From NCBI GenBank assembly GCA_947487055.1, contig CANKVN010000001.1:19555-83554 (forward strand): a DNA stretch of 64,000 nucleotides, written 5' to 3'. This document shows, piece by piece, positions 3,725 through 30,297 of this stretch. Origin of the DNA: Flavobacteriales bacterium. Lineage in GTDB: Bacteria; Bacteroidota; Bacteroidia; NS11-12g; UBA955. Position 1 is the stretch's first letter, and each line of letters opens with the position of its first letter. Both the position numbers and the translations under genes were made by a program. A model generated the notes under the pieces. It saw only the letters and a program-made list of their open reading frames with translations, ran no database searches and was not told where the DNA came from.

Positions 3725-3793
3725 TTTTTAATACAGAAAAAGTAAACGTAATGGTTCGCCTTATATTGTCAGTGTTTTGTAGAATTGTGCAAG

Positions 3794-6891: not shown

Positions 6892-7792
6892 GTCCGGTTA
6901 CTTGTCTGAAAATGTTTTCTAAAGAATGTTGCTCGCTCACCAGTTCCATCACTTCCAGGTTCGCTGCGAGCGCAAATTGCGAAACTGCCTGCCTAAAGTC
7001 TGCCTGTGTTCCGGTAAGGCGCCACGAATAACCGCCGGTATTCTCTGCAGCAATGCAGCCCTGAATTTGCAGCAAGGCCGATTGCTCCACGGCTGCAGCA
7101 AACTGCACCCTGACCAAAACCTTACCTCCACTACTTTTCCTCAGGTTTTCAAGCGTATCATCCGCAACAATATTGCCTTTATCGATAATAATAACCCGGT
7201 CGCAGATTGCTTCCACTTCCTGCATGATGTGGGTGCTGAGCATGATGGTTTTGTCGCGCCCCAGGCCTTTGATCAAATCCCGGATTTCCACCACCTGATT
7301 GGGATCCAGCCCACTGGTAGGTTCGTCCAGAATCAGCACATCGGGTTCATGAATCATGGCTTGCGCCAAACCCACACGCTGTCTGTATCCTTTGGATAAT
7401 TGTCCGATTTTTTTATGCTGTTCTGTTACCAGGTTCGTAAGGTCAATAACCTCAGCAACCCTTTTTGCCGGATTTTTCATCCCTCCCATACCTGCAGCAA
7501 AAGCCAGGTATTCTTTCACATACATGTCCAGGTATAAAGGATTGTGCTCGGGAAGGTAACCCACATGCTTTCGCACCTGCAGGCTTTGCTCTCCTACATC
7601 CAGTCCGCAAACTTTGGCAGATCCTGAAGTGGGTGGAATAAAGCAGGTCAGGATTTTCATGGTGGTACTTTTACCAGCGCCATTTGGCCCTAAGAAACCT
7701 ACAATTTCGCCCTTTGAAATAGCAAAGGTGATGTTGTTTACCGCTGTTTGGGCGCCATACAACTTGGTTAAATTACTTACTTCTATGCTCAC
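6875..7792 (-). CDS. gldA: Gliding-motility-associated ABC transporter ATP-binding protein GldA
   Basis: Walker A GPNGAGKST, ABC signature LSKGYRQR, Walker B VLILDEPTSGLD. The longest ORF starts at TTG 7816, but GTG 7792 gives the canonical MSIEVSNLTKLYG start. Confidence 0.8.
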   Translation of the reverse strand: MSIEVSNLTKLYGAQTAVNNITFAISKGEIVGFLGPNGAGKSTTMKILTCFIPPTSGSAKVCGLDVGEQSLQVRKHVGYLPEHNPLYLDMYVKEYLAFAAGMGGMKNPAKRVAEVIDLTNLVTEQHKKIGQLSKGYRQRVGLAQAMIHEPDVLILDEPTSGLDPNQVVEIRDLIKGLGRDKTIMLSTHIMQEVEAICDRVIIIDKGNIVADDTLENLRKSSGGKVLVRVQFAAAVEQSALLQIQGCIAAENTGGYSWRLTGTQADFRQAVSQFALAANLEVMELVSEQHSLENIFRQVTGHVDHI

Positions 7793-7890
7793 GGTAGAAA
7801 TGCAAAAATAAGACAATCGGCTTCACCTAAGTGAATAATGATAAGCAATGAAAGCGGGTGTGCAGTTTATTTTACACCCCGCTGATGGTA

Positions 7891-15473: not shown

Positions 15474-15498
15474 AAAACCCGGGGGAACCCGGGTTTTT
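15474..15498. terminator. Bidirectional intrinsic terminator
   Basis: AAAACCCGGG-GGAA-CCCGGGTTTT is a perfect 10-bp stem with a 4-nt loop and T/A runs on both sides. It lies between the small plus-strand ORF and the end of the minus-strand four-gene unit. Confidence 0.7.
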
Positions 15499-15620: not shown

Positions 15621-17243
15621 TTACTGCAACACTGCCTGATAGCCGAGCATACCCTGAAACACCGTGCGTGAAGGTGATAGTTGCTGATACTGAATCGAAC
15701 ATTGCAATGATTGCCGTTTGCTAACCGCCCAGGATAACTGCCCCCTGCCAAACGTGGTTTCCCTAAGTAAATTATTGCCCTGATAAGCCCTGTTTTGGCT
15801 CACTGAAATGGTTGAACGTGCTTTGCCCTTTGCCCAGGCCATATTCACAGCAATAACCGGGCAGTGATTGGTTATGACAATTTCATTTATTGTGTTTTTA
15901 CCTGTATTATAAGAAAAGGAAACAGTTGCACCTGATTTTCTGTGTTTACCGGAAAATCCGAGGGCTGTGTTGTAGAAGTCACTACCGCCCTGCAGGCTGG
16001 CGGTTTCACGTTGCCACAAAGCAGACCCGGTAACCACGGATTCCCATTGCTTTGACTTTTGCAAAGGAATACTCCATTGCATGTTTGCCGATTGAGAAAT
16101 CTGCCTGAAATTTAACGTATCCCATGCCAGCATTGGGTTTCCCGGCTGCACAACATCCAAAAAGGAACGCGCATTGGTGTAACTGGTAAAATTGGAATAC
16201 ATCACAGAAAGCATGGAACGCTTTGCTGACGCATACTGCAACTGGGCCTGATATACATTTCGCAGCATGGAAGCGGTTTTGTTCATTTTCAGGTTATCCC
16301 GCTGGATTCCTCCTTGTGCACTCAACTGCAACTTCCCTTTCATCCCCCGCAGGCTTGCACCTACGGTCATATTCTCAAGGTCATTGTTAAAATAATAAGC
16401 TCCCAGCGTTTGATAATCAGGATCTACGCGCTCGTAGGCTGTATTCCATTGCACTACATTACCCTGATGCACCAGGCTTGCCTTAAAGGCATGGTGAAGT
16501 GCATTTATTTGGGGAGTTCTGTAATCATTCATCATGCGAGACTGGCTTATATCCAGCCCCAACTGCCATTTTCTCCGCAACACTTGATTCCATTGAACAC
16601 CAAACACATCATTGCTTTTAGGGGTAATCCCAAGCTCGAATGGAAGGGCTTCAATACTGCCTGTGTCATCCTGGGCATGAAAGTAAAGCAATTGCAAACG
16701 GCTTCCGCGGTTCTGGTAGGCACTCCGAACACCCATTCCCAATCTTTTGTATGCCGGCCGCATGTTGCCAAAACTCGAATCCGGAAGCGGAATGGCTTTT
16801 TGAAACCGGCCGTAAAGCGCTGAAATTGTCCATTTACCAGGCGTTAAATCAATGGCTGCACCTTGAAAAACGTGGCCGTTAAGCGAATAAGGAGACCAGC
16901 TTTGGGCAATACGCCCAACATGCACCTGCACCCATTTATATTTGGGATGAAAAGCGGTCTGGTTAAACGTTGGCTGTGTGTAAGCATTTCCCAGATTGGA
17001 ATATAACATCTGAAAAGGCGCATCCACAACACCGAAAAGGGTTAGGTTGAGGTTACCGGTAAACACATAATTAAACGAACTACCCTGCATTGCGTCGCCT
17101 GTTCCGCGATTGAGCATTTGTATCAGCCCCACATTGCCGCGTGCCACCAGCCATTTCGATTTGACCACTTGCTCCAGATCCTGGCTACGGCCATACTTAA
17201 TTGCCAGTAATTGCAGCAGCAACAATATCAATTTAGCGCGCAT
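15621..17243 (-). CDS. Secreted 540-aa protein, putative outer-membrane beta-barrel; family not recognised
   Basis: Signal peptide MRAKLILLLLQLLAIKYGRSQ. After it there is no hydrophobic helix. The sequence is rich in Q/N/S/Y/G with alternating amphipathic stretches. It is the last gene of the coupled unit (12-nt gap to the upstream gene). Confidence 0.45.
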   Translation of the reverse strand: MRAKLILLLLQLLAIKYGRSQDLEQVVKSKWLVARGNVGLIQMLNRGTGDAMQGSSFNYVFTGNLNLTLFGVVDAPFQMLYSNLGNAYTQPTFNQTAFHPKYKWVQVHVGRIAQSWSPYSLNGHVFQGAAIDLTPGKWTISALYGRFQKAIPLPDSSFGNMRPAYKRLGMGVRSAYQNRGSRLQLLYFHAQDDTGSIEALPFELGITPKSNDVFGVQWNQVLRRKWQLGLDISQSRMMNDYRTPQINALHHAFKASLVHQGNVVQWNTAYERVDPDYQTLGAYYFNNDLENMTVGASLRGMKGKLQLSAQGGIQRDNLKMNKTASMLRNVYQAQLQYASAKRSMLSVMYSNFTSYTNARSFLDVVQPGNPMLAWDTLNFRQISQSANMQWSIPLQKSKQWESVVTGSALWQRETASLQGGSDFYNTALGFSGKHRKSGATVSFSYNTGKNTINEIVITNHCPVIAVNMAWAKGKARSTISVSQNRAYQGNNLLRETTFGRGQLSWAVSKRQSLQCSIQYQQLSPSRTVFQGMLGYQAVLQ

Positions 17244-17255
17244 GGTCTTTCCCGA

Positions 17256-19400
17256 TTAATCAACAACAATCATTTTGAGGGTTTTAAGCTCATTGGCTGT
17301 TTGAACCCTGACATAATAAACCCCTTTGGCAGCAATAGAAAAAGCCATTTCATCCATCTGCTGAATATTGATTTTGGAACTGCTTTGAAGAACCTTTCCG
17401 GAAATAGGATCCAACAACATCAGTTTTACATCGGCGGCTTCCCGCAACCTTATTTTTATCTTGTAATCCTTTCCATTGCTGGGATTGGGCCTCAATCCGG
17501 CATGGATCAGGTTGGGACCCAGATAACCCATGCGGACATCCATCCTGGCTGAATCTGTGGCGCTTATAACCTGAATTTGCTTTTCCCTTACAAACCCACA
17601 TCCGTTTGAAAACCTGGACCTCAGCACCACCAAAAAACGGCCTGTGTCTAAAAACAACGCCCGGATTCCATTTGGCTCCTCTGTTACCTTCTTGTATTGC
17701 TTACCAATGATAAACCAGCTATTGGTGCTGGCTTTTGGCAAACAATGATCGATGGCCAAAACCGTATCGGAAAGCCTAACCTGGGCCGGAATGAGGAAAT
17801 CATGTTTAACCTGTTCATTTCGTTGTTCAACCTTGATGGTATCCCTGGCTACGCATCCAGAATCGTTGGTCCACTCCAAAAACCACAGTCCGCTTTCATG
17901 CAAACTAAACGTATCGGAAGTAAATATTTTGCTGCTGGAACTCCTCCTCACAAAAGCAGCGGCATTGGGGTCTTTGGCATCCACAAACTGTGATTGACCC
18001 GGGCAAAAAACGGTATCAATCCGAAATTTTTTTCCAAAAGGCAATGCTCCCGGAATGTTGAGGGTATCCAGAACAACACAACCTCCCGTATTGGTAGCTG
18101 TAAACGGGTACTTGCCCCTTCCCAGGTGCGTGAGGGTGTCACCTGCTCTTATTACGCCAAACCCTTTAAAGCCAATGAGAACGGTGTCATTCCATTTGGC
18201 ACTGCCAGCTGTTGCAAGCCATTTTCCATCCTTTTTACCTGGACAAGATTCACCATCTCTGAAGGTTGTATTTAGTTTAAATCCATACGGGCCCTCCAGG
18301 CTGACAGTATCCCAGCGAAATCCACAGTCAAAATCGTTCCAAGGTGTAAAATCAACACCCACAGCATACAAACCGTTGATCAAATGCAGCTCTTTTCCTG
18401 CATTTACGGCTGCCAATGGATGAAATTGACCCGATTTATCATTGAAATTAAATTGTGATACCTGACGGTAGTTGCCCAAAAACCATAACAATTTATTGCC
18501 TGTATCATTCAATTTCCTCAACCAAATATTCACCCCAAAAAACGATTGGTGTAAACTGTCATTTTTAAAATAAACATGGATATTCTTTTGGTTTTCCAGA
18601 CAAGTCTTACCCGAAGTAATCACAGAATCTTTTCGGGCATTGAGATAAAAGTTTAGTGGCCCAAAAACAGAACTGGCTTTATTTTTCTCCCCGGTAACAC
18701 CAAAAGTATCTAGCATGATTTTATAATAACGTCTGACATTGAAAACCCCTGCAGATTGACGTTTAAGGGATGCGAAAGGCGAAAAAACCATTCCCGTATC
18801 AGCGGCAAACCATGGTCCATTTAGAGAAGTTGCTTCATACCATTTCAATTTTCCATCAGAAAATGACGGGTTAAAAAAGCAGGGGGCCGTCAATTTAACA
18901 TTCATCGCTTCCTGCTCGCAATGAAACTGTCGCTGGGGATTTAGCCCACCAATGGCTATTGGATCATGCGATTGGCTGTCATTAAACCATTTTAGCGTTA
19001 ACGACGCACAAATTGTTCCCAGTTCATTCATAGGAAAGGCTTCACAGGTTCCCTTTTTCAGCAGACCAGGGAAGCGATATGCCGTGCAATAGGGATTGGT
19101 GAAATTTTTGGCAAACGTATTGGTTTGGGGCACCCTGCGCGTATGGTCAATTATTTTAAATGATATGGAATCTACAGCAGCAGCAAATTCCCGGCGCCAT
19201 TCGTAGGAAAACGGACCATTAACGGTGAATGAATCTTCCTTTATGTCCGAAGCATGCAAATGATAAGTCAGTTTCAACTTAACAAAATCTGCATTGCCAC
19301 TTCCCCAGGTGTAATTGCCTGAAAATTTGAACAACAAATGATTGGATGCAAAACCTGCATTCATCATCAGCAATAGTGTAATTAATCCTTTGATTTTCAT
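17256..19400 (-). CDS. Cys-rich secreted 714-aa protein with type-A T9SS C-terminal sorting domain (surface/adhesin-like)
   Basis: Signal peptide MKIKGLITLLLMMNAGFA. The C-terminus LRPNPSNGKDYKIKIRL..VKLMLLDPISGKVL..GVYYVRVQTANELKTLKMIVVD matches the T9SS CTD pattern. There are two T-N-x-x-G-C-V-x-x-D-T motifs (TNTGGCVVLDT, TNDSGCVARDT). Its start overlaps the upstream stop (ATGA). Confidence 0.6.
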   Translation of the reverse strand: MKIKGLITLLLMMNAGFASNHLLFKFSGNYTWGSGNADFVKLKLTYHLHASDIKEDSFTVNGPFSYEWRREFAAAVDSISFKIIDHTRRVPQTNTFAKNFTNPYCTAYRFPGLLKKGTCEAFPMNELGTICASLTLKWFNDSQSHDPIAIGGLNPQRQFHCEQEAMNVKLTAPCFFNPSFSDGKLKWYEATSLNGPWFAADTGMVFSPFASLKRQSAGVFNVRRYYKIMLDTFGVTGEKNKASSVFGPLNFYLNARKDSVITSGKTCLENQKNIHVYFKNDSLHQSFFGVNIWLRKLNDTGNKLLWFLGNYRQVSQFNFNDKSGQFHPLAAVNAGKELHLINGLYAVGVDFTPWNDFDCGFRWDTVSLEGPYGFKLNTTFRDGESCPGKKDGKWLATAGSAKWNDTVLIGFKGFGVIRAGDTLTHLGRGKYPFTATNTGGCVVLDTLNIPGALPFGKKFRIDTVFCPGQSQFVDAKDPNAAAFVRRSSSSKIFTSDTFSLHESGLWFLEWTNDSGCVARDTIKVEQRNEQVKHDFLIPAQVRLSDTVLAIDHCLPKASTNSWFIIGKQYKKVTEEPNGIRALFLDTGRFLVVLRSRFSNGCGFVREKQIQVISATDSARMDVRMGYLGPNLIHAGLRPNPSNGKDYKIKIRLREAADVKLMLLDPISGKVLQSSSKINIQQMDEMAFSIAAKGVYYVRVQTANELKTLKMIVVD

Positions 19401-21364
19401 TTGCTTTTTAATCCATTAATGGTGTGTGCTACAATTTTTATTTTATCATTTTCAGCGGGTATAAATCCATAAACACAGAGTTGCTTCTCCGCAGCGCTTG
19501 TTGTGCCAAGCACACGGGATTTATTGTTGCTTTTAAGCAAAACACTGAAGTGCGACAAGCCCTTCAGATCGGGATATTCCCAAAACAAAAAGCATCTGTT
19601 TTTAAGGGTATCGCAAACAATGGTGGGTTGGGAAACAGCAGGGATCTGGTCATTTACCGGAAACCTCAACGCCAATGCAGCAGAAGGCTTAGAGATATTA
19701 CCACGTGCATCGCTCGCCGTTATTGCATATTGATAAATGGCATCGCCTTCACCAATTGTGTCAATAAATTTCAAGGAATTATCTGGTGCAAAGGTTCTTA
19801 TTTGCCACTGGTTCCGGGAATTATCGTCCCATCTTATAAGGGTGTAGCTTTGCACGTCTGACGCTCTTGCATGCTGCCATTGAAGTTCATAACCTTTGTC
19901 CATTTTGCGGTAACCCGAAAATGCCGGTGCAGGTGGCGGAATGATATCAAACACTGCGCATGAGTAGTAAGAAAACCTTGATTGATTGTACCGTTCATCA
20001 AGTGCTGATATAGCATAATACAGACTATCCTGGAGCATTTTGAGGTTTATGGTATCGGTGAAAAAGGTATCCGTAAGATGCACATGGGAATAATCTGAAT
20101 ATTCCTGCCTGGGATTGTTTGCCCTGTAAATTCGGTAATAATGTGCCGTCGGTGATGCTTTCCAGTTCAATTTTACGATCCCCAAAGAATCACAACTTCC
20201 TATAATTGATGATGGTGGAGGCGGTGGTAAAGAGTCTACCTTTTGCAGGAAAGCCATGCCGCCTGAATGCCATTCACCTCCCAAATCCCTGGCAGAAGGT
20301 TGTAAATAAATGGATGAATAATCCTGTGGAATTGCCGCAGTAAACCCATTGCCCACCGGTTTATAATCAAGCCTTTGAAAAAGACCGTCAGCGCTTCTGC
20401 CAATCATTATTTCAAGGGAATCAAAATACCGCTTTTCCCGATCCGGAAACGGCCATTTAAAATGCAATTGACTGTCATTTAAAAGCAACAGATCTGTCAA
20501 CTGCGGGCATTCCAAATCCGGAAGTACATATACAAAAACAGTATCCGAGTATGGGCCCGGCAAACCGAACATGTCCAGACCCGAGACGCGGTAAAAAACC
20601 TTACCGGCTAAAACTGCAGGCGTATCCAACAGCATAAGGGTTTCACCTTTCCCGGCATGCACAAATGGCAAGTTGGAAATGGCTTTAAATGCGAATTGGG
20701 AATCCAGAGCGCGTTCCACCGTGTACCCAAAATATTCGGGGCTAAACAGGGTATTTATGCCGAGCACAGCGCGTTTATTTCGGTATTGGTGTTGCTGGAT
20801 TTTTGGCGAAGGTTGCGGTTTTTCCAAACCGGAAAACAAATACACCCGGGCAGTATCCTCACTGGCAGTGGATACCGTATAGACATATTCCTCATTCAAT
20901 TTGGCTGTTTGGTCCTGCCAACCCAAACCACACTGAATGGCAAGGTTAAAGTCGCGCATGAGCAAAACAGAAACCTGCATGAAGGCCAAATCCATCGTTT
21001 CTTTGTCTTCAACAATGGCCAAAGGATTGTTTCCTTCGCTTTTTACATAAAACAACATTTGCTTAATCCATTGCAATTCAGCATTGTCTTTTTCTATGCC
21101 CGCTGTATCAAATTTTATGGGTTGCTCGTTTAGCCGGTAGCGTTCCTCCTTTGGTAATGGCTGCCCATCCCTGGAAATGGTAACCCTTTCCAAGTTAAAG
21201 CCTTTTAACATATGCTTTTTCATGGCCTCGGGCGCACCTGGCTGCCACCTTATCCATACAGCATCGGCAAAGCGCCGTGTTTTACCCCGGATTTCCACAG
21301 ATTGCCCAAAAGCCCATGAAAGGCAACCAATACTTAGGATGAGGAATACCAAAACCTTTTTCAT
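19397..21364 (-). CDS. Secreted 655-aa protein built of about five FN3-like modules; family not recognised
   Basis: Signal peptide MKKVLVFLILSIGCLSWAFGQ. It has repeated beta-sandwich signatures: W early (VWIRWQP, KLNWKAS, ELQWQHA, FLFWEYP) and late Y-x-[YI]-x-[IV]-x-A-x-D (FYRVSGLDMFG, YYAISALDERYNQS, YQYAITASDARGNIS). Its start overlaps the upstream stop (ATGA). Confidence 0.55.
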   Translation of the reverse strand: MKKVLVFLILSIGCLSWAFGQSVEIRGKTRRFADAVWIRWQPGAPEAMKKHMLKGFNLERVTISRDGQPLPKEERYRLNEQPIKFDTAGIEKDNAELQWIKQMLFYVKSEGNNPLAIVEDKETMDLAFMQVSVLLMRDFNLAIQCGLGWQDQTAKLNEEYVYTVSTASEDTARVYLFSGLEKPQPSPKIQQHQYRNKRAVLGINTLFSPEYFGYTVERALDSQFAFKAISNLPFVHAGKGETLMLLDTPAVLAGKVFYRVSGLDMFGLPGPYSDTVFVYVLPDLECPQLTDLLLLNDSQLHFKWPFPDREKRYFDSLEIMIGRSADGLFQRLDYKPVGNGFTAAIPQDYSSIYLQPSARDLGGEWHSGGMAFLQKVDSLPPPPPSSIIGSCDSLGIVKLNWKASPTAHYYRIYRANNPRQEYSDYSHVHLTDTFFTDTINLKMLQDSLYYAISALDERYNQSRFSYYSCAVFDIIPPPAPAFSGYRKMDKGYELQWQHARASDVQSYTLIRWDDNSRNQWQIRTFAPDNSLKFIDTIGEGDAIYQYAITASDARGNISKPSAALALRFPVNDQIPAVSQPTIVCDTLKNRCFLFWEYPDLKGLSHFSVLLKSNNKSRVLGTTSAAEKQLCVYGFIPAENDKIKIVAHTINGLKSK

Positions 21365-24300
21365 GGCTTATAGCCCTCCCCGATGCTAAAACGATTGGTG
21401 GGAAGGTTTGTCATTTGGTAGGTTGCGCCAAACGTCATCGCTTGCCAGTCCACAGGATCATTGAGTTGCAATTGACCAACCCCGTTAACGAATTTATTCC
21501 TCAGTGCGGCTTGCTCTTCCAGCAGCAGCTTGGCCGACTGAAATAATTTCCCGGGTTGCGATTGCTGCAGCGAGGGGGCCTTTTTGGGCGGCGGTAATTG
21601 TGAAATCTGTTTGTTGGAAATATTGTTTACCGGCAACATACCAATCATTTGCTGCAGCGTGATTATGTCTGCGAATTGGGCATAGCCGATCAGCGCCTCC
21701 TTCAGCAGCTCCAAATCCGCTTTCATCACAGCTACTCCGCTATATTCAAGGCTTAATGATTGCGTAACGAAATCCACAGCAGCACCTTTGTAATGACGCT
21801 CATTTAAAACAACCTTTTCACATCCGGGCTGGGTGGCTGTAACTGCCCACTGGGGAATAAGCCCCTGGGATGTGTCCCTTTTCCAACCAACTTTTGTTTT
21901 TGCGGCACTTGGCAGCCGATAATAGAAGCCATACAGTTTTGGATTCACCATGGTGGTAAACCAAGAGGATTTTTGTAGTTGTGCATGAAACCGATACCCT
22001 TTTTGTTTTAATTCCGGTAAGGCACAGTACTCCTGTTTTTGCTGCGACAACGTATATTCCATGATATCGTCAGTGTCGATGCCTTTTTTAACGGTGCAGG
22101 CCTGCCACTTGATATCGGGCTTGGGATAATGAGACGTGCGCACGTAGTACGTTAGTAAAACGGCATCTTTTATTGTGGAACTATTTTGGTTACTGGCTAG
22201 CCCGGAAACACCGCTCATGCTTGCTGCACCCGGATTAAACGTTGTTTCGGCAGTTCCTGAAGCCACGTTCAACAGCCGGTCTTCCGTGCTGCGTCTCATT
22301 AACCTAAACTGGTAGGTTTTGGCGTTCTTCAAGGCTTGGGGAATGGAAAATACCGCAGCATTCCCTTTTACCTCAACGGCAACATCACGGCATTCCCCAT
22401 CTGCGGCTGAAAAACGGCCTACAAATTTGGTTCCTGGCAGCGCCAGTTGTTGCCATTGAGACACTTTCAAGGCTATGCTGCCATTGGTTGCATAAGCAAC
22501 ATGGAGATTGACCTGACCCGGACTGGGATAGGCTTCAGCGATATTTTCGAGGGGAATTTCAGCCAGTGCGTTCCCCGTTTTGAAATCCCGCTTCTGCATC
22601 TCTACCACAGAAGTTCCGTTGTATGGTAAATCATCCCAGCGTTTCAGATTCTGGTTCCAAACTTGAGCCCGCAGGGTTACGGTTAACAAATGCTGCGCAT
22701 TTGCCTTGAGTGGCAGGGGCATCCTAAACGAGGATGATTGCTTATCAGGGGAAAGCTCCCAAAGACCGGCAACTTTTGTTCTATCCTGCAGCAACTCATA
22801 TTGTGGCATTAACCGCAATTTCCGCTGGTTTACATCGGTGAATTCTGTTTCAACAGGAATCGAAAAGGCAACCACCGGAGCCTGAAGCACGCCCATTTGT
22901 TGCCCTTGAACAGGCGCTTCTATTTGAATAATGGGTTCGGAGTTCCATTGATTTTGCACCATTTCGCATGATTTGCCAATGTTTACCCGAAACCTCCCAC
23001 TAACATCAAATAAATTGACTACTTTCACACTGAATGCGGCAGTTCCCGAAGCGGAAATGGGGCTGGGCCCTTGGCCCTGAAGCAACGCACCCAAAGAAAT
23101 ATTTGCCACATCCACAGAAAAATTCCCAACAGAACCACCAATCCGAACGGCCATGCCCGTATAGTACTTACCCTGGGCAAACCAGCCGTTAATTCCGGGT
23201 CTTTCGCCGGTTTCATTGCATACCGTTAACGCATTGTATTTATTCAACGTTATGTCCAATCCGGACATCGCCATTCCTTTCGCGTACAATGCAATCTTTT
23301 TATAACGGTATTCTCCGCCTATTTCTGCAGTCAGCACGCCACCAAAGGAGAAGGCTACACCCTGGGTGAGGCTACCTGCATCCCTCGTTGTTTCCACCGC
23401 ATTTACACCCAACAGATTTTCGATAAAAGTAGGCAAAGGTGGTGGTGGAAGCACTGATTTTCCAGTCATGAAATAGGCTTTGGCATCCATTTTCATGATT
23501 TTGGGTATCACTGCCTGTAAGGCAAGTGGATCTTGGCTATTACCTATCCATACGTACCAGTTTGTAGGACTAAAAAACAGATTAATTTGGCCTGCAAAGC
23601 CGTTATCCCTGGTCCCGGTAATGTTTGCTGCTTTTGTTTTAACATTTGCATACAATCCGAAGTTGCCAACGTAGGTTTTATTGTTGAAATCCAGCTGAAT
23701 ATCCATGGCTGCTGCCAGCATGCCATCAGGCTTGTATTGTGCCACCATTTCTTTGCCGGTAGAAACCGCACACAATGCCTGGCTTTTTTGTGCAAATACA
23801 TTCGCATTTAAGGGAACAGGATTGGTTAAGAAATCTGCGGTTCCAAAAAGCAGAATTTGGTCAATGGCACCACCCTTCCTGAACTGCACCTCCAAAGCAC
23901 CATTTCCCTGAAATGCCCCGGGAGCTGTGCTCTTTAGATAAACACCTGCCCTTAATCCCATTCCGGCAGTTGCATCCGGTACATATATTCTTCCATTGGC
24001 ACTTCTGCCATAGATTGATGAAGGCTCATTTTCCCCAGGTTTCAAGGCGCGCATCCTGAACCATGCACCGCCAAGAAAACCATTTAATGTGGCTGCAGGC
24101 CCTATGGGGATTCCTTTTGACACGTCAACAGCCGCATCAAAATACCAATAACGGTTATCGCGGATTCGGCCAAACAGCACTTTGCAAGCCCCGCTAATTT
24201 CTTCAGAACTCATCTTAACCTTAAAGGTGATTTCTCCGTTGAATCCCTTTCCATACTGGGGATCAGACCGGATGACGGCCAACCTGCCTTGCAGATTGAT

Positions 24301-25917
24301 GTTGGCGATTGCCACGGATAAGGCTAAATCTGAAAGTTGGCATTTTTTGAATGCCCAGCGGTCTTTCCCTTCCCGGGAAATTAAAGTTGCATATATTTTG
24401 ATTCCGGCAGCACAGGCTAAATTTTCGTTGAGGTTTACTCCCAGCGTAAAGCCAAGAAATTGCGACCCGGATTCGTTACCAAAATTCACGTCCCTAATAA
24501 ATATGGGAAAGGCATTTAGTTCGGATGGGGCGCTTTTACCAGTTACCCCTAAATAATCCAGCTTAATTTTTGGTGCATGGTTGGCAATGGTAAGGCCCTG
24601 AAATTCCACACCGCATAAAGTTACATTTGGCCCGTCGGCGTCTTCCCTGGATTTAGTTTTTATGGTTAAACTACCGTGCAGCACGGCTTCGGCGGTCACC
24701 ACTCCCTCATTGATGGCAAGGTATAACTGGCTGCCTGAGGTAAGCATAACTGTTGCTGCTTTCAGCGCCGGAATGCTAATGGTATCTTTCGTTTTTACCG
24801 TAAAACAGTAATTGTCATTAAAGCCAATGAGGGCGTCATAATTAAGCAGCTGCGTATCGGGCAAAACGGGCAGCCCCAGGGTGCCGTTGAATTGTGCCTT
24901 TACCAAACAATTCCGTAAAAAAGTTATTTCCGCCCTATCAATTCCAAATCTCCAACCTGCCAAATTCCCCTTGGATGTATCAAGAATTCCTGTGCCAAAA
25001 ATTGACCCGGAAAAACCGGACCTATCAACCGTTAAATTCCTAAATCCAAATTCCGGCCTGGGTTTTGAGGCCGCTGTAAAATGTGCCGGAAAAATCACTT
25101 TCCCTTCCTGCAGGTAAAATCCCTCCCAACTACCCGCTTCAAAATCCTGAGGTGGCATACCCGGGGCATCTGCCTGCCCGTTTAAATCCAAAACAGCATT
25201 GGTCACCTTGAAGGCATATCCCTTAAACCCTTTTACCTGAAAGGGCTGCAAACTGATTTGAATAAGCATTTCTTCCCAGGAAGCAGTAACCATGCTGAAA
25301 GAACTCTGCAAGCTACTGTCAACCATCGGGTTAAGATTTTTATCCAGCGGCTCCAAAAGATTGCTGTTGATGCTTGCTTCGCCGGTTACACCAAAACGTT
25401 CCAAACCTGAACAGGCAAACTCTGCCCAGGTGTGGTTGATGCCCCCTTTAATAAGAATGTTTGCAGCCCGGCCCAATCTTATATTAACATCACTCAGCAA
25501 GTACATTTTTACCGGCCCGGTGAGACCCTGATGGTAATAGAAACTGATATTGTCTGCTTTGCAGGCCACCAACTGGTTGCTTCTGGAATCGCGAAAAGCC
25601 AGTCCTGCGCTAAAGACAGCCCTTTGGGGCTCTATATCAACATTGTAAATAATGATGGCAAACCGAATATCCTTGGATGCCGGCATCAATAAAAACTCTC
25701 CGCTTGGCTTTGCTTGAAAAGCTGCGCCCAGTTCATCCACCACCGCTCCCCTTTCCACGGCTTGTTTGATCCTCATTTCCATTGAATCGCCGGTTGTTTT
25801 CTGCGCAAATAATCCACATGCAAACAGCAGTTGGCAGAGGCAGAAGCAAACACAACGGTTCAACAATGAGAAATTGACGCCCATAGAACCTACAAATAAA
25901 TTGTGTTTTATCGACAA
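21361..25917 (-). CDS. Giant (about 1507-1518 aa) N-terminally anchored envelope protein; no family recognised
   Basis: It is one uninterrupted ORF. The likely start is ATG 25884 (MGVNFSLLNRCVCFCLCQLLFACGLFAQ: signal/anchor with a possible LFAC lipobox). I saw no internal repeats or catalytic motifs. There is a poly-Pro linker LPPPPLP and a Q/L-rich C-terminal tail. Confidence 0.6.
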   Translation of the reverse strand: MSIKHNLFVGSMGVNFSLLNRCVCFCLCQLLFACGLFAQKTTGDSMEMRIKQAVERGAVVDELGAAFQAKPSGEFLLMPASKDIRFAIIIYNVDIEPQRAVFSAGLAFRDSRSNQLVACKADNISFYYHQGLTGPVKMYLLSDVNIRLGRAANILIKGGINHTWAEFACSGLERFGVTGEASINSNLLEPLDKNLNPMVDSSLQSSFSMVTASWEEMLIQISLQPFQVKGFKGYAFKVTNAVLDLNGQADAPGMPPQDFEAGSWEGFYLQEGKVIFPAHFTAASKPRPEFGFRNLTVDRSGFSGSIFGTGILDTSKGNLAGWRFGIDRAEITFLRNCLVKAQFNGTLGLPVLPDTQLLNYDALIGFNDNYCFTVKTKDTISIPALKAATVMLTSGSQLYLAINEGVVTAEAVLHGSLTIKTKSREDADGPNVTLCGVEFQGLTIANHAPKIKLDYLGVTGKSAPSELNAFPIFIRDVNFGNESGSQFLGFTLGVNLNENLACAAGIKIYATLISREGKDRWAFKKCQLSDLALSVAIANINLQGRLAVIRSDPQYGKGFNGEITFKVKMSSEEISGACKVLFGRIRDNRYWYFDAAVDVSKGIPIGPAATLNGFLGGAWFRMRALKPGENEPSSIYGRSANGRIYVPDATAGMGLRAGVYLKSTAPGAFQGNGALEVQFRKGGAIDQILLFGTADFLTNPVPLNANVFAQKSQALCAVSTGKEMVAQYKPDGMLAAAMDIQLDFNNKTYVGNFGLYANVKTKAANITGTRDNGFAGQINLFFSPTNWYVWIGNSQDPLALQAVIPKIMKMDAKAYFMTGKSVLPPPPLPTFIENLLGVNAVETTRDAGSLTQGVAFSFGGVLTAEIGGEYRYKKIALYAKGMAMSGLDITLNKYNALTVCNETGERPGINGWFAQGKYYTGMAVRIGGSVGNFSVDVANISLGALLQGQGPSPISASGTAAFSVKVVNLFDVSGRFRVNIGKSCEMVQNQWNSEPIIQIEAPVQGQQMGVLQAPVVAFSIPVETEFTDVNQRKLRLMPQYELLQDRTKVAGLWELSPDKQSSSFRMPLPLKANAQHLLTVTLRAQVWNQNLKRWDDLPYNGTSVVEMQKRDFKTGNALAEIPLENIAEAYPSPGQVNLHVAYATNGSIALKVSQWQQLALPGTKFVGRFSAADGECRDVAVEVKGNAAVFSIPQALKNAKTYQFRLMRRSTEDRLLNVASGTAETTFNPGAASMSGVSGLASNQNSSTIKDAVLLTYYVRTSHYPKPDIKWQACTVKKGIDTDDIMEYTLSQQKQEYCALPELKQKGYRFHAQLQKSSWFTTMVNPKLYGFYYRLPSAAKTKVGWKRDTSQGLIPQWAVTATQPGCEKVVLNERHYKGAAVDFVTQSLSLEYSGVAVMKADLELLKEALIGYAQFADIITLQQMIGMLPVNNISNKQISQLPPPKKAPSLQQSQPGKLFQSAKLLLEEQAALRNKFVNGVGQLQLNDPVDWQAMTFGATYQMTNLPTNRFSIGEGYKP

Positions 25918-25931
25918 TAAAATGAGTATAA

Positions 25932-25972
25932 AGTACTAAAAAAAGCCCCAAATCGGGGCTTTTTTTAGTACT
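25932..25972. terminator. Perfect 41-nt palindromic terminator after glnA
   Basis: The sequence is AGTACT-A7-GCCCC-AAATC-GGGGC-T7-AGTACT, giving 18-nt perfect arms and a 5-nt loop. Confidence 0.8.
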
Positions 25973-25998: not shown

Positions 25999-28131
25999 TT
26001 ACCTGCAGCCGTTCAAAAGATCGCGGTATGTTGGGAAAGGCCATTCGCGGTCATCTACGATTGACTCCAGCGCATCGCTGTGCTCGCGGATTTCATCGAA
26101 CAGGGGTTTTACCTTTTCGCAATAGGCAATGGCGCGTTTGTGCGCATCTTCAATTTTATTTGCCTTGGCACGTTCGGCGGTCATTTCTTTGTTTACAGCA
26201 TGCAGCTTATTAATATGGCTGCTGATATCGGAAATAATTTCGGTTTGCGCCTTCAAGGTAGATTTGTTCTGACCAATACCCATGAGGGTTTGCACGTTGT
26301 CTGCCAAACGTTTTTGATAATTTACGGCAGCAGGAACTATGTGGTTTTGAACCATTTCATTAATCAGGCGGCCTTCTATTTGCAGGCGCAGCACATAGCT
26401 TTCAAAACGAATATCTGTGCGGGCTTCAAGTTCTTTGTGGTTGAAAATGCCATTTTTAACAAACAAATCAATGCTGGCTTCACTGAGGTAGGATTCCAGG
26501 GCGCGGGGTGTAGTTTTGATGTTATTCAAACCACGGCGCTTGGCCTCTTTCACCCATTCGTCGCTATAACCGTTGCCGCCAAACAGCACTTTCTTGCTGT
26601 CTTTGAGGTAACCACGCAATACTTTTTTGATGGCATCTTCGGTTTTGGTTCCTTTTTTGGCCTTGATGGCGGCATCAACATCCTTTTTAAACAGCATCAA
26701 CTGGTTGCCCACAATGGTGTTGAGCACCGTCATGGAGCTTGCGCAATTGTCGCTGCTACCCACAGCCCTAAACTCAAATTTATTACCTGTAAATGCGAAT
26801 GGTGATGTGCGGTTGCGGTCGGTATTGTCCAGTAAAATTTCGGGAATACTCGCGATTTTGATGCTTGCTTTTCCTTTTTCTTCTTTGGCAGCTGTGGCAG
26901 TACCTTCAAATGTTTGTAGCACATGTTCCAGCGTATCGCCCACAAACACAGAAACGATGGCGGGCGGTGCTTCATTGGCGCCAAGGCGGTGATCATTGGC
27001 AGCGGTAGCGATACTGGCGCGCAACAAATCGGCGTGGTCGTAAACGGCTTTGATGGTATTGATGAAGAAAGTCAGGAACTGTAGGTTTTCCAATGGATTA
27101 TTTCCGGGAGCAAGCAAGTTCACCCCGGTGTTGGTAACAATACTCCAGTTGTTGTGTTTACCGCTGCCGTTAATGCCTTTGAAAGGTTTTTCGTGAAAGA
27201 GCACCTTCATGCCATGGCTATTGGCAACACTTTCCATCACATCCATGAGGAGGCTGTTGTGGTCTACCGCAAGATTGGCTTCTTCGTATTGGGGCGCACA
27301 TTCAAATTGTGCAGGTGCAACCTCATTGTGGCGTGTGCGCAAGGGAATTCCCAATTTATGACTGGCTTCTTCAAAATCTGCCATAAAGGCAAGTACCCGG
27401 TTGGGAATGCTACCAAAATAATGGTCTTCCAGTTGCTGTCCTTTAGCCGGCGAGCTGCCAACCAGGGTTCTGCCTGCAAGCATCAAATCCGGACGCTGGT
27501 GAAAATGATTTTCATCCACCAGAAAATATTCCTGTTCCACACCCAGGCTCACGGAGCAGTCATTCACTTTTGGATCAAAATAATGACAAACTTCTGTGGA
27601 AGCTTTGCGCACCAGAGCAAGTGCTTTCAGCAATGGCGCTTTGTAATCGAGGGCCTCGCCGGTATAGGAAACAAAAATTGTGGGAATACACAAGGTTTTG
27701 GCTCCGGCTTTTTCCATGATGAATGCAGGGGATGATGGATCCCATGCGGTGTATCCTCGGGCTTCAAACGTATTGCGAATACCGCCACTGGGAAAACTGG
27801 AAGCATCCGGCTCTTGTTGAACCAATGCTTTACCCGAGAATTTCTCCACGCCTTTGTCTGTAGCTATTGGCTCAAAAAAGCTGTCATGCTTTTCGGCGGT
27901 TGTGCCACGCAGTGGTTGAAACCAGTGGGTGTAGTGGGTGCAACCTTTATCTAAGGCCCAATCCTTCATGCCTTCTGCCACTTCACTGGCCAGTTCAGGA
28001 GAAATGAGATGACCTTCACGCTGAGCATCTGCAATTGCTTTGATAGCAGGTTTACTGAGGTGCTTTTTTTGTGCTTCGTTGCCGAAAACATTTTCTCCGA
28101 AGTAACTTGAAATAAGGGTATTGTTTGCCAC
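25999..28131 (-). CDS. glnA: Glutamine synthetase type III
   Basis: 710 aa with the GSIII-type N-terminal region (CTHYTHWFQPLRGTTAEKHDSF). The size is characteristic of Bacteroides-type GSIII. Confidence 0.9.
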   Translation of the reverse strand: MANNTLISSYFGENVFGNEAQKKHLSKPAIKAIADAQREGHLISPELASEVAEGMKDWALDKGCTHYTHWFQPLRGTTAEKHDSFFEPIATDKGVEKFSGKALVQQEPDASSFPSGGIRNTFEARGYTAWDPSSPAFIMEKAGAKTLCIPTIFVSYTGEALDYKAPLLKALALVRKASTEVCHYFDPKVNDCSVSLGVEQEYFLVDENHFHQRPDLMLAGRTLVGSSPAKGQQLEDHYFGSIPNRVLAFMADFEEASHKLGIPLRTRHNEVAPAQFECAPQYEEANLAVDHNSLLMDVMESVANSHGMKVLFHEKPFKGINGSGKHNNWSIVTNTGVNLLAPGNNPLENLQFLTFFINTIKAVYDHADLLRASIATAANDHRLGANEAPPAIVSVFVGDTLEHVLQTFEGTATAAKEEKGKASIKIASIPEILLDNTDRNRTSPFAFTGNKFEFRAVGSSDNCASSMTVLNTIVGNQLMLFKKDVDAAIKAKKGTKTEDAIKKVLRGYLKDSKKVLFGGNGYSDEWVKEAKRRGLNNIKTTPRALESYLSEASIDLFVKNGIFNHKELEARTDIRFESYVLRLQIEGRLINEMVQNHIVPAAVNYQKRLADNVQTLMGIGQNKSTLKAQTEIISDISSHINKLHAVNKEMTAERAKANKIEDAHKRAIAYCEKVKPLFDEIREHSDALESIVDDREWPFPTYRDLLNGCR

Positions 28132-28362
28132 AGGTATACGTATTTTATGAATGGTTATGGTTCAATTTTCGATGCAAAGTTCATTAAATAAGCAGACTTT
28201 TTAAGAGGATGCCTCCATTACTTATCCAAAAGAAATTCACCGTAGCACAACACAGCCGCTAAGGGGCTCTTGGCGTTTGTTGACAGATTATTCACAACTT
28301 GTATATACCTCATTAAAAATGCAGTTGCTGCCCCTTAAATTCGCCCACACTTTCAACAAATC

Positions 28363-30297
28363 ATGGGGCAAACACGCATCGACAAACTATCAGCTGCCGG
28401 GCTGCTGGTTACTTTGGGCATCATTTATGGCGACATCGGCACATCACCATTGTATGTAATGAGCGCCATTGTGGGCAATAAGCCCATCGATGAACTTACT
28501 GTACTTGGTGGAATCAGTTGTGTATTCTGGACCCTGACCCTGCAAACTACAATTAAGTATGTAATTCTCACACTAAGGGCAGACAACAAAGGTGAAGGAG
28601 GTATTTTCTCCTTATTCAGCCTACTTAGAAGGCGTTTCCCTTATTTAATGATAGGCACCATGGTAGGAGGTGCTATGTTGCTGGCCGATGGAATTATTAC
28701 GCCGCCAATTTCTGTTTCCTCAGCCATTGAAGGCTTGCGGATTCTGGATCCACAGATTCAAACAGTCCCCATTGTCATTGCTATCATTGCTGTTATTTTC
28801 ATTTTCCAGCGCGCAGGCACCAGCACTGTCGGTAAGGCATTTGGCCCTATTATGCTGGTTTGGTTTGGCATGCTCGCCGTTTTGGGCGGGGCAAAAATCA
28901 TGGAGAATCCATTCGTATTGCATGCAATAAACCCTATTTATGTGGTGAAATTTATCAGCAGCAGCAAAGAAGCGTTTGTGCTTCTGGGTGCTGTATTCCT
29001 TTGCACTACTGGCGCAGAAGCGCTATACAGTGATTTGGGGCACTGCGGAAAAAAGAACATCCGAATTACCTGGATTTTTGTAAAAATCAGCCTGCTACTA
29101 AACTACATGGGCCAGGGTGCCCATTTGCTTGGCATGCAAGGGCAAACACTGGGTGCAAAAAGTCCGTTTTACGCCATCATGCCGGACTGGTTTCTGATTT
29201 TCGGTATTGGAATCGCAACCATGGCGGCCATCATTGCCAGCCAGGCTTTAATCAGCGGTTCATTTACTTTGGTTTCTGAGGCAATACGGTTGCACTTTTT
29301 CCCAAAGTTTACGGTTAAATATCCAAGCGATGTAAAAGGCCAGATTTACATTCCGTTTATCAATACAGCTATGCTGGTTGGCTGCATTGGCGTGGTGCTT
29401 TATTTCCGGGAAAGCAAAGCCATGGAAGCGGCTTATGGCCTTGCAATTACCGTAACCATGCTTATGACCTCTCTGCTGCTATTTTATTACCTGAAAATGC
29501 GCCGCTGGCCACTGGTGCTCATTTGGATGATAATGTTGGTTTTCTTCTCAGTAGAACTTGCCTTCTTACTGGCCAATCTGGCCAAATTCACCCATGGTGG
29601 TTATGTAACCGTACTCATCGGTATTATGATTATGGCATTCATGTATATCTTCTGGAAGGGCGGACAAATCAAAAGCCGGCTCACTGAAAGTGTTCCCCTT
29701 AATATATTCAGGGACAAGCTACGTGCTTTGAGTCAGGATACTACACTCCCAAAATATGCCACACACCTTATTTACCTGAGCAAAACCAAGGCAGATGACG
29801 AAGTCGAATCATTACTGCTGCAGAGCATTTTGCAGAAAAGGCCCAAACGTGCCGATTTTTACTGGTTTGTCAATGTTGATGTTACCGATGAACCCTACAC
29901 CTTGGAATATAAGGTTACAACAGTTGAGAAAAATGACATCTATAAGGTGCGTTTGAAATTGGGTTTCAGGGTTCAGCAAAAAATAAGTTATTACCTAAGA
30001 CTGGTGATTCAGGAAATGCTGGATAACCATGAAATAGATTTGGATCCTTACTATCACGCATTCTCTGACAAACGCTACCTGGGCGATTTCAGGTTCGTTT
30101 TGATTGATGAAGAAATTACCCAGGAAAATGAACTGCCAATACTGGATAACATTGTGCTAAACGCTTACGGGAAGATGAAATTTTTGGCTGGTAGGCCCGA
30201 AAAATGGTTTGGCCTTGATGAAAGCATGGTAACCAAAGAACTGGTGCCTGTAGTGATAAAAAGAACCAAAGATGTGAAATTAACACGCATTAAATGA
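28363..30297 (+). CDS. kup: KUP/HAK/KT potassium uptake protein
   Basis: 644 aa with the IIYGDIGTSPLYV signature, a polytopic N-terminal two-thirds and a soluble C-terminal domain. Confidence 0.92.
   Translation: MGQTRIDKLSAAGLLVTLGIIYGDIGTSPLYVMSAIVGNKPIDELTVLGGISCVFWTLTLQTTIKYVILTLRADNKGEGGIFSLFSLLRRRFPYLMIGTMVGGAMLLADGIITPPISVSSAIEGLRILDPQIQTVPIVIAIIAVIFIFQRAGTSTVGKAFGPIMLVWFGMLAVLGGAKIMENPFVLHAINPIYVVKFISSSKEAFVLLGAVFLCTTGAEALYSDLGHCGKKNIRITWIFVKISLLLNYMGQGAHLLGMQGQTLGAKSPFYAIMPDWFLIFGIGIATMAAIIASQALISGSFTLVSEAIRLHFFPKFTVKYPSDVKGQIYIPFINTAMLVGCIGVVLYFRESKAMEAAYGLAITVTMLMTSLLLFYYLKMRRWPLVLIWMIMLVFFSVELAFLLANLAKFTHGGYVTVLIGIMIMAFMYIFWKGGQIKSRLTESVPLNIFRDKLRALSQDTTLPKYATHLIYLSKTKADDEVESLLLQSILQKRPKRADFYWFVNVDVTDEPYTLEYKVTTVEKNDIYKVRLKLGFRVQQKISYYLRLVIQEMLDNHEIDLDPYYHAFSDKRYLGDFRFVLIDEEITQENELPILDNIVLNAYGKMKFLAGRPEKWFGLDESMVTKELVPVVIKRTKDVKLTRIK

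Follow-up and report, generated by a model that had tools for sequence, protein, structure and literature searches.

An operon of four exported envelope proteins, a toxin-less variant of the TANFOR gene neighbourhood

Four tightly packed genes, A to D, are read on the minus strand between two strong hairpins in the 64-kb stretch of DNA analysed here (the window; Table 1), and they raise the question of which envelope system, characterised or otherwise, they belong to. A preliminary description of this DNA took them for a candidate undescribed cell-surface system. The minus-strand ORFs that it reported, of 1518, 655, 714 and 540 aa, are present, and the features by which it linked them, ATGA start/stop overlaps between A and B (21361-21364) and between B and C (19397-19400) and a 12-nt gap between C and D (17244-17255), are seen directly in the sequence. 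The ATGA overlaps also occur in the homologous loci L001, L108 and L109. Each ORF has many full-length homologues, and all four are real genes. Because the homologues of A align from the ATG at 25884 (M12 of the TTG ORF), this codon is probably its true start.

The hairpin downstream of D has six GC pairs in its stem and is followed by CTCATTTTTT. It ranks strongest among the terminator-like sites of the region, of which there are 14 overall, against 18.6 +/- 4.7 expected from shuffled sequence, and so no excess. On the other side of the unit, what had been described as a perfect 41-nt palindrome (25932-25972) consists instead of two perfect 18-nt arms separated by a 5-nt loop that is not palindromic; A- and T-tracts flank it. 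The most natural reading of this element is that it terminates the glutamine synthetase III gene lying upstream (25999-28131), and it would insulate the A-D unit against upstream transcription.

Table 1. Positions of the A-D genes, their bounding hairpins and T9SS-related genes in the window
Feature	Position	Strand	Remarks
SprA_N-bearing ORF	2-3727	-	domain match
GldA/F/G-like ABC genes	4403-7816		domain match
Intrinsic-terminator-like hairpin closing the A-D unit	15474-15497	-	10-bp stem, 4-nt loop
Gene D	15621-17243	-	540 aa; predicted outer-membrane beta-barrel
Gene C	17256-19400	-	714 aa; cysteine-rich T9SS cargo
T9SS sorting domain (type A) at the C-terminus of C	17265-17489	-	residues 638-712
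Gene B	19397-21364	-	655 aa; exported Fn3-domain array
Gene A ORF	21361-25917	-	1518 aa counted from TTG
Gene A, probable true ORF	21361-25884	-	1507 aa; exported all-beta protein
Inverted repeat between glutamine synthetase III gene and A	25932-25972	.	sequence read
PorU-like Peptidase_C25 with CTD	60610-63969	-	domain match

The four genes are conserved together far beyond this genome. In at least nine diverged lineages (L001, L008, L011, L014, L022, L024, L028, L108 and L109), A, B, C and D occur in this order and with the same sizes, in unrelated contexts and with identities of 28-46% in A. A-D are a single co-inherited operon encoding Sec-exported envelope proteins, and the four-gene form recurs as an autonomous unit in a number of diverged lineages, most of them uncultured and from fresh water. 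In most relatives, however, D is followed by a fifth gene, X, encoding a protein of 1,200-2,200 aa. When adjacencies are counted over about 100 loci, B comes next after A in 12 of 13, C next after B in 18 of 22 and X next after D in 40 of 63, and C precedes D in 17 of 55; the strongest adjacency involving D is that with X, not that with C. The full order A-B-C-D-X is found in L050, L052, L082 and L092. The full form of the cluster is thus five genes in the cyclic order A-B-C-D-X, widespread in Bacteroidota and so far unnamed. One subgroup (L003, L013 and L018) has A-B-C without D within the sequence available.

The X proteins are TANFOR-like antibacterial polymorphic toxins that combine a TANFOR N-domain, fn3 and a metzincin motif with a toxin tip that varies. 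Their N-termini match TIGR02542 in 33 of 53 cases, with a best E of 7.9e-12, and match no other family; unlike at the known TANFOR loci, every one of these matches lies below the NCBI curated cut-off. The layout of X is nevertheless that of published TANFOR toxins (TANFOR at ~26-162, FN3 at ~293-375 and a nuclease tip), and PT-HINT is found among X proteins, as is an AHH nuclease domain in L081. Rare fusions join the TANFOR-fn3 N-module to a full-length A (P0184, P0281, P0157 and P0033), and the order in L110 is D, a TANFOR::A fusion and B, with no C. Together these indicate that a TANFOR-led protein always adjoins D, and that A itself can be TANFOR-led.

Within the window, a profile of the X proteins finds nothing, and A-D have no match to TIGR02542 (NCBIfam). 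The window therefore holds a toxin-less variant, with a short C, of the TANFOR gene neighbourhood. Such neighbourhoods were reported in 2020 to be enriched in SprB, Fn3, PKD and T9SS-CTD proteins, and the T9SS was proposed as the export route of the toxins (Jana, Salomon & Bosis 2020, PMC7073777). The reported enrichment in SprB, Fn3 and Por_Secre_tail corresponds to C and B, and relatives of A-D flank toxins of the published layout (FN3 at ~290-375, nuclease or other tip), behind which lie immunity-like genes. Of the parts of a TANFOR system, the SprB/CTD and Fn3 neighbours are present here as C and B, but a protein combining an N-terminal TANFOR with a variable toxin is missing from the window. 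The claim that the system is undescribed holds in part: the neighbourhood was partly noted around TANFOR toxins (PMC7073777), whereas the 1,500-aa family A and the barrel family D were not recognised there.

The N-termini, previously called signal-peptide or anchor-like, look like cleavable Sec signal peptides, not anchors, with a predicted mature N-terminus of Q in A, B and D. The homologues of A have SPI-type signals and no conserved lipobox, and A, taken earlier for an anchored giant, is judged from its sequence to be exported via its signal peptide instead. Only C adds a T9SS sorting domain; none is found in A, B or D (Pfam, NCBIfam). This domain, recognised correctly as type A, matches TIGR04183 over residues 638-712 (E=1.4e-7; 31.4 bits, the cut-off being 23) and, at 26.2 bits, falls slightly below the cut-off of 27 for Pfam Por_Secre_tail (PF18962). 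Residues ~310-714 of C are common to relatives of 870-2,200 aa; these carry SprB repeats, 14-19 of them in the longer members of the family, and Por_Secre_tail. C is a short member of this SprB-repeat family, whose long form is found in loci with X; the short-C subfamily has 11 invariant cysteines. Domain matches also bear out the presence of T9SS genes (SprA_N, PorU-like and GldA/F/G-like) in this genome segment.

B matches no family in Pfam or NCBIfam (E<=1) as a single sequence. A profile of 16 family members, however, matches the Fn3 arrays of titin and RPTP over positions ~270-675 (E=7e-29, to titin, to 1e-8), and Pfam fn3 matches nine of the 16, confirming the FN3-like modules that had been proposed. 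D, proposed as a putative outer-membrane barrel, gives an AF2 beta-barrel with 26 strand elements (pLDDT 85, pTM 0.73); it models confidently as a plug-less barrel of ~26 strands without a periplasmic domain. It has no match in Pfam, NCBIfam (E<=1) or PDB sequence profiles, and its homologues, at least 823 in number, are unnamed except for the UniRef label 'outer membrane protein beta-barrel'. The family consensus ends in GYSYxF, resembling the BAM beta-signal, and there is no invariant cysteine across 76 sequences. Foldseek matches D to MtrB (6r2q_B, E=1e-9, TMq 0.49), to the FimD/PapC usher pores (TM 0.33-0.47) and to SlpA, a likeness at the level of large barrels in general, with TM about 0.4-0.5 at best.

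A is likewise without a family match in Pfam, NCBIfam (E<=1) or PDB sequence profiles. Its homologues, 33 of them close and 2,826 at the level of representatives (50% clustering), are all unnamed proteins of ~1,450-1,600 aa, and the residues invariant in the family are kept in the window copy. The AF2 model of residues 28-1227 is all-beta (pLDDT 81.7, pTM 0.48): the signal peptide is followed by ~950 aa of tightly hairpinned beta-sheet and by Ig-like domains at ~960-1180, and the C-terminal 300 aa lie outside the modelled part. No global structural match is found by Foldseek, the best hits (LptD, SlpA and ApoB100) having TM <=0.17; with this and the pTM of 0.48, both its fold class and its location are tentative, and A could be periplasmic. 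In P0157, its module at 70-360 is tandemly repeated.

As the preliminary description suspected, neither the profile searches nor the AF2/Foldseek comparisons place the unit in a characterised system. Against a TamB/AsmA plus Omp85 (TAM/BAM-like) pair, A and D lack matches to TamB (DUF490), AsmA, Omp85 and POTRA (Pfam/NCBIfam, E<=1), and the D model lacks a periplasmic domain. LptD (PF04453) and MtrB_PioB (PF11854) give no match at E<=1 either, the likeness being structural only. Two-partner secretion (T5b) is resembled in that a barrel gene lies directly upstream of a giant exoprotein, whose conserved N-terminal domain (TANFOR) could serve as a recognition module and whose C-terminal toxin tips are polymorphic, as in CdiA. 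However, D has ~26 strands and neither POTRA domains nor an Omp85 signature, there is no match to ShlB or to the TPS/haemagglutination-activity domain, and three additional conserved partners, A, B and C, are present; the analogy is functional only. The FimD/PapC ushers and the MtrB of MtrCAB are large barrels through which proteins that are elongated, or folded and Ig-like, pass or in which they are enclosed; the partners of D are Fn3/Ig-rich. D nonetheless has no plug, no N- or C-terminal usher domains and no match to the Pfam usher family (PF00577), and the unit lacks a chaperone-like gene and a cytochrome; as D has no sequence-family match either, what is left is a likeness of barrel fold. 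The gliding adhesin operon sprC-sprD-sprB-sprF of Flavobacterium johnsoniae also brings together an outer-membrane barrel, two large envelope proteins and a T9SS substrate with SprB repeats, and the genome is that of a gliding- and T9SS-positive member of the Bacteroidota. Its gene order is different, though, and A and B have no match to anything SprD- or SprC-like that was compared; for an SprB/RemA adhesin with PorP/SprF, the sorting domain should be type B and not type A, and D should match PF11751, which it does not at E<=1.

The best explanation, held tentatively and at a little short of even confidence, is that D is a conduit or sheath for Sec-exported partners and that C arrives by the T9SS, giving a surface assembly. 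Partners with a Sec signal and no sorting domain (A, B and the TANFOR-led toxin, if present) would reach or span the outer membrane via D. C would be exported separately by the T9SS encoded in this genome, and may meet the other parts at the surface via the conserved ~320 residues preceding its sorting domain. The resulting assembly would display or deliver a TANFOR toxin in most genomes; in this one, presumably only the adhesin-like parts of C, A and B would be displayed, or a toxin encoded elsewhere would be served. The closest folds to D are protein-conducting or -sheathing barrels (MtrB, the FimD/PapC ushers), which counts for a conduit role, and since the window form has no X, D cannot be a translocator of TANFOR proteins only. 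It is in this form that we infer the trans-envelope or surface assembly first proposed for the unit. A stronger version, possible but doubtful, is that A, B and D, partnered by a C that the T9SS delivers, are an unrecognised, Bacteroidota-specific outer-membrane secretion or delivery pathway distinct from the T9SS. D would then be the translocon for Sec substrates without sorting domains, the TANFOR N-domain the targeting module, and the 1,500-aa A a surface shaft or translocation component delivering polymorphic toxins to neighbouring cells, with the window holding the bare apparatus.

The T9SS could, on the other hand, account for more of the unit. If A-D were a cargo-specific accessory or anchoring module, like SprC/SprD/SprF for SprB, C would be the sole surface component, anchored in the outer membrane by D after T9SS export, A and B would give periplasmic or outer-membrane support (e.g. 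by coupling C to the gliding track), and TANFOR toxins would be merely co-located cargo. The C family does consist of SprB-repeat T9SS substrates, in the window form, as in the 17 loci counted above, D comes straight after C, gliding and T9SS genes lie within the window, and T9SS export of TANFOR toxins is favoured by Jana et al. (PMC7073777). We nevertheless consider this module unlikely. The sorting domain of C is of type A, and type A cargo is not known to depend on a PorP/SprF-type partner. SprF acts via twin cysteines, and D has neither a PorP_SprF match (E<=1) nor a conserved cysteine; A lacks the PorP/SprF-like part that SprD apparently has, as SprD and SprF match the same S. grandis protein. 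D also keeps closer company with X than with C, and L110 retains D, TANFOR::A and B in the absence of C. It is very unlikely that A and D are instead an envelope-biogenesis or lipid/LPS-handling pair, with A a TamB/AsmA/LptD-jellyroll-like beta-groove protein, D its outer-membrane barrel and the toxin link incidental. LptD (E=4e-7) and beta-sheet regions of ApoB100 are the best Foldseek matches of A, and the LptD barrel has 26 strands, the number of strand elements in D; but the TM-scores of A do not exceed 0.17, neither protein matches Pfam TamB, AsmA, LptD or OstA at E<=1, and A has Ig-like domains and, in P0157, adhesin-like tandem repeats. Patchy distribution, variation from strain to strain and linkage to polymorphic toxins and immunity genes moreover set the A-D system apart from housekeeping biogenesis machinery. 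The absence of X from the window and its close relatives would also be expected of a decaying remnant, without current function, of a TANFOR locus that has lost its toxin gene. This is the least probable reading, and a highly improbable one: all four ORFs are intact, family-invariant residues are kept, and the toxin-less form retains its gene sizes and stop/start overlaps at 28-36% identity in A and in unrelated contexts.

Among polymorphic toxins specific to Bacteroidota, TANFOR toxins make up the main class described so far, and the T9SS has been the sole export route suggested for them since 2020. They are accompanied by two large unannotated families, the all-beta A of 1,500 aa and the ~26-strand barrel D, each numbering hundreds to thousands of proteins, as well as by a protein with an Fn3 array and a T9SS substrate of the SprB type. 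Families A and D are seeds for two new protein-family definitions, and the A-D genes offer concrete deletion targets for the question of toxin export. Loci without a nearby toxin gene still keep these four accessory genes as an autonomous operon, and there are hints that the apparatus serves more than toxin delivery, for instance adhesion or surface display, in Bacteroidota that are abundant in fresh water and uncultured. Among the neighbours in the supplementary tables of PMC7073777 are unannotated proteins of ~447, ~750-790 and 1,622 aa; set against the families described here by size, without sequences, these may be the accessory PKD protein, a long D and A.

The four long minus-strand ORFs of the preliminary description, here called A, B, C and D, are all present (see table) and form a co-inherited operon encoding four exported proteins, including one T9SS substrate and one large outer-membrane barrel without a plug. 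This operon is part of a five-gene cluster centred on TANFOR toxins, and in the form found in the window no toxin gene is nearby. The ATGA overlaps reported at the A/B and B/C junctions can be read in the sequence, as can a 12-nt gap between C and D. When homologues are aligned, those of A begin at the position matching the ATG, not the TTG. The terminator proposed 3' of D is a strong terminator-like hairpin of 10 bp, 6 of them GC, followed by a T-run. The 41-nt palindrome described upstream of A stands only in part: there is a perfect 18-bp inverted repeat, interrupted by a 5-nt loop and with A/T tracts on both sides. Since it sits just past the stop codon of the upstream glutamine synthetase III (GSIII) gene, it is most simply read as the terminator of that gene, and it also insulates the A-D unit. 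The GC content of the unit equals that of its flanks. Inspection by eye revealed no convincing Bacteroidota-type promoter upstream of A, and a sigma-70 promoter scan is uninformative for this phylum.

Features of the A-D operon and related loci in the window
Feature	Coordinates	Strand	Remarks
A	21361-25917	minus	1518 aa from TTG; 1507 aa from ATG at 25884
B	19397-21364	minus	655 aa
C	17256-19400	minus	714 aa
D	15621-17243	minus	540 aa
Terminator-like hairpin 3' of D	15474-15497		
GSIII, Kup K+ transporter, DPP-IV	25999-32504		
Partial SprA (SprA_N)	2-3727	minus	
GldG/GldF/GldA-like ABC operon	4403-7816	minus	
PorU-like C25 peptidase with sorting domain	60610-63969	minus	

To assess conservation, loci were collected from genomes (17, surrounding A) and from metagenomes (80, surrounding D) and annotated with per-protein profiles. 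The order A-B-C-D, with gene sizes as in the window, occurs in nine loci (L001, L008, L011, L014, L022, L024, L028, L108 and L109), across which identity in A falls from 46% to 28%; the stop/start overlaps are kept in these relatives too. Recurrence across Bacteroidota in this order, proposed earlier as the mark of a functional unit, is thus what the comparison yields. The GSIII-Kup-DPPIV flank is common to the closest relatives of the window (~45% identity in A), and in L108 and L109 the unit lies in unrelated contexts. Synteny over this flank extends to L001, L002, L008, L011 and L014, all from MAGs of freshwater-lake Flavobacteriales/Bacteroidia with ~45% identity in A. In a separate subgroup (L003, L013, L018 and also L016), A and B accompany a C of ~870 aa with one SprB repeat, and D and the toxin gene are absent within the available sequence; D may be encoded elsewhere in these genomes or be dispensable.

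The fifth gene of the wider cluster, X, encodes a protein of 1,200-2,200 aa and lies directly 3' of D in 40 of the 63 loci with room for it. The full cyclic order A-B-C-D-X is seen in L050, L052, L082 and L092, and many further loci have D and X followed by 1-3 kb of small genes and then A and B. The N-terminal ~150 aa of X are conserved, and the sole family matched is TIGR02542 (TANFOR), in 33 of 53 X sequences, with a best E of 8e-12 and every match under the curated cut-off. An fn3 domain follows at ~290-370, and the C-termini are variable, with PT-HINT in some cases and additionally an AHH nuclease in L081; SUKH-type immunity-like genes are found 3' of X in some loci. On the strength of consistent sub-threshold matches and an identical domain layout, the predicted architecture of X is that of the TANFOR polymorphic toxins described by Jana, Salomon and Bosis 2020 (PMC7073777), whose Supplemental Data name TANFOR-positive strains of Flavobacterium johnsoniae, Chitinophaga and Aquimarina. 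A metzincin-type zinc-protease motif, HELGHGxFxLxH, is invariant in X. It lies at ~residues 830-842 (L025-L027, L050, L081 and others), is followed by an LMDY Met-turn-like motif, and may have a role in toxin processing or release; the accessible part of PMC7073777 does not mention it.

The same paper reports SprB, Fn3, PKD and Por_Secre_tail domains as enriched near TANFOR genes and speculates that TANFOR toxins are exported by the T9SS. In the present scheme its SprB/sorting-domain proteins are C, and its Fn3 proteins are B. Its supplementary tables list unannotated neighbours of ~447, 750-790 and 1,622 aa, which, matched by size and not by sequence, may be an accessory PKD protein, a long D and A. 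A and D, for which no domain model exists, are not recognised there as conserved TANFOR partners, and the literature searched contained no later description of these two accessory genes. Other recurrent accessory genes belong to the five-gene form, and none is in the window: a ~450-aa protein just 5' of D in 13 loci (L006:6137-7477, L076:8568-9938, L084:8547-9890 and ten others), whose L006 member carries PKD domains; a ~300-aa protein just 5' of A in seven loci (L025:18918-19844, L027:19570-20490 and five others), with weak HEAT_2 matches on two members; and proteins of 135-160 aa between D and X in eight loci.

Gene fusions linking A with X occur among the 150 top-ranked A-family representatives. 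In two of these, P0184 and P0281, one ORF carries X residues 1-~570 (TANFOR and fn3) in place of the A signal peptide and continues into full-length A. P0221 and P0288 have shorter stretches of the X N-module in front of full-length A, spanning profile positions 280-548 and 416-496 and excluding the TANFOR domain. The 5,511-aa P0157 comprises the X N-terminus, six tandem modules of X-fn3 plus A(70-360), and the remainder of A; P0033 is a similar fusion, and its locus (L110:2513-9211) encodes D, then TANFOR::A, then B, without C. Homology between A and X is ruled out by hhalign (probability 0.3%), so these are true domain fusions. They argue that A and the TANFOR module share one pathway, that the TANFOR-led protein is always encoded beside D, and that one portion of A is an adhesin-like module capable of being repeated, not a membrane barrel.

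Pfam and NCBIfam searches at E<=1 gave no match for B or D and a weak Big_5 match only for A; besides that match, the sole domain assigned across the four proteins is the type A T9SS C-terminal sorting domain that had been recognised on C (residues 638-712). PDB sequence-profile searches gave no match for A or D, Fn3 matches only for B, and nothing significant for C. The Fn3-like modules suggested for B are borne out as an Fn3 array, for which a 16-member profile matches titin and receptor-phosphatase arrays at E values as low as 7e-29; 9 of the 16 members contain Pfam fn3. C is rich in cysteines, 11 of them invariant within its subfamily, and its long relatives carry 14-19 SprB repeats together with a type A sorting domain. 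Each of the four N-termini has a basic n-region and then a hydrophobic stretch leading to a cleavage site of small residues; the residue after this site is Q in A, B and D. These N-termini are read as probable cleavable Sec signals. An 'LFAC' in the window sequence of A raised the question of a lipoprotein anchor, which was ruled out by the homologues: some 80 of them have SPI-type signals and no conserved lipobox, so the supposed anchored giant is better called exported.

The model of A (residues 28-1227; pLDDT 82, pTM 0.48) is predicted to be all-beta, with ~60 strands in tight hairpins to ~residue 945 and Ig-like domains after that. Foldseek against PDB and BFVD returned local similarity only (TM <=0.17) to LptD, SlpA, ApoB100 and phage tail proteins; membership of these families was rejected, and the fold class of the model is left unassigned. 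A word-indexed search recovered 33 homologues of ~1,470-1,590 aa, all labelled 'hypothetical' and lacking Pfam domains, and an exhaustive profile search with the N-domain found 2,826 representative proteins (1,920 at E<=1e-30), of which those sampled are all unnamed. A repeat search using the A alignment added nothing to the proteins already found, and the A-bearing reference genomes recovered by genome scan are all MAGs.

For D, the suggestion of an outer-membrane barrel is supported by a confident model (76-sequence alignment; pLDDT 85, pTM 0.73), which is almost wholly barrel, with 26 strand elements and no predicted plug or periplasmic domain. The closest PDB structures are MtrB (E=1e-9, TM 0.49), the FimD/PapC usher pores and SlpA; the model shows a large-lumen barrel, and these matches do not place it in the MtrB, usher or SlpA families. 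The family consensus terminus is an aromatic-rich GYSYxF resembling a BAM beta-signal. At least 823 D homologues exist, and cultured members of Aquimarina, Pseudochryseolinea, Dawidia and Ohtaekwangia are among their hosts.

The unit lacks the defining features of the TAM/BAM, TPS, chaperone-usher, LptDE, MtrCAB and SprB/SprF systems, and the only class to which any part of it belongs is T9SS type A cargo, by C alone. Equating A with SprD and B with SprC was considered, and A lacks the PorP/SprF-like part that SprD seems to have; the evidence for that part is indirect, in that SprD and SprF both match one and the same S. grandis protein, which suggests it. The known system nearest to the unit is the TANFOR toxin neighbourhood, and the window carries a toxin-less variant of it.

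It may be that D is an outer-membrane conduit or sheath for partners that have Sec signals and no T9SS sorting domain, namely A, B and the TANFOR-led toxin in genomes that have it. C would reach the surface through the T9SS and dock onto the complex by ~320 conserved residues N-terminal to its sorting domain. The sprA, gldAFG and porU genes mentioned previously were recovered as a partial SprA, a Gld-like operon and a PorU-like peptidase, indicating that the genome encodes the T9SS/gliding machinery that C needs. For D, the closest parallels are the usher, through which folded Ig-like subunits pass, MtrB, which surrounds MtrA, and TpsB, the exporter of TpsA. For the organism of the window, this would mean an assembly displaying A, B and C only, or one serving a toxin encoded elsewhere. 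We favour this mechanism as a whole tentatively, judging it slightly more apt to fail than to hold; that A, B and D amount to a Bacteroidota pathway of their own for export or delivery at the outer membrane is a more doubtful proposition.

An SprF-like module dedicated to C as cargo, for its anchoring or for motility, is unlikely: the sorting domain of C is type A, D has neither a PorP/SprF signature nor a conserved cysteine, and some loci, such as L110, have no C. The low-TM LptD and ApoB matches are the sole hint of an envelope or lipid-biogenesis pair, which the patchy distribution and the toxin linkage make highly improbable. Conservation of the toxin-less form over deep divergence makes a decaying remnant more improbable still. 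Returning to A itself, exactly three Cys are invariant in 24-34 homologues (C158, C889 and C973; M12 numbering); C889 and C973 could pair, and the remaining C158, part of an FDCxGLKEF motif, may be available for a disulfide between molecules.
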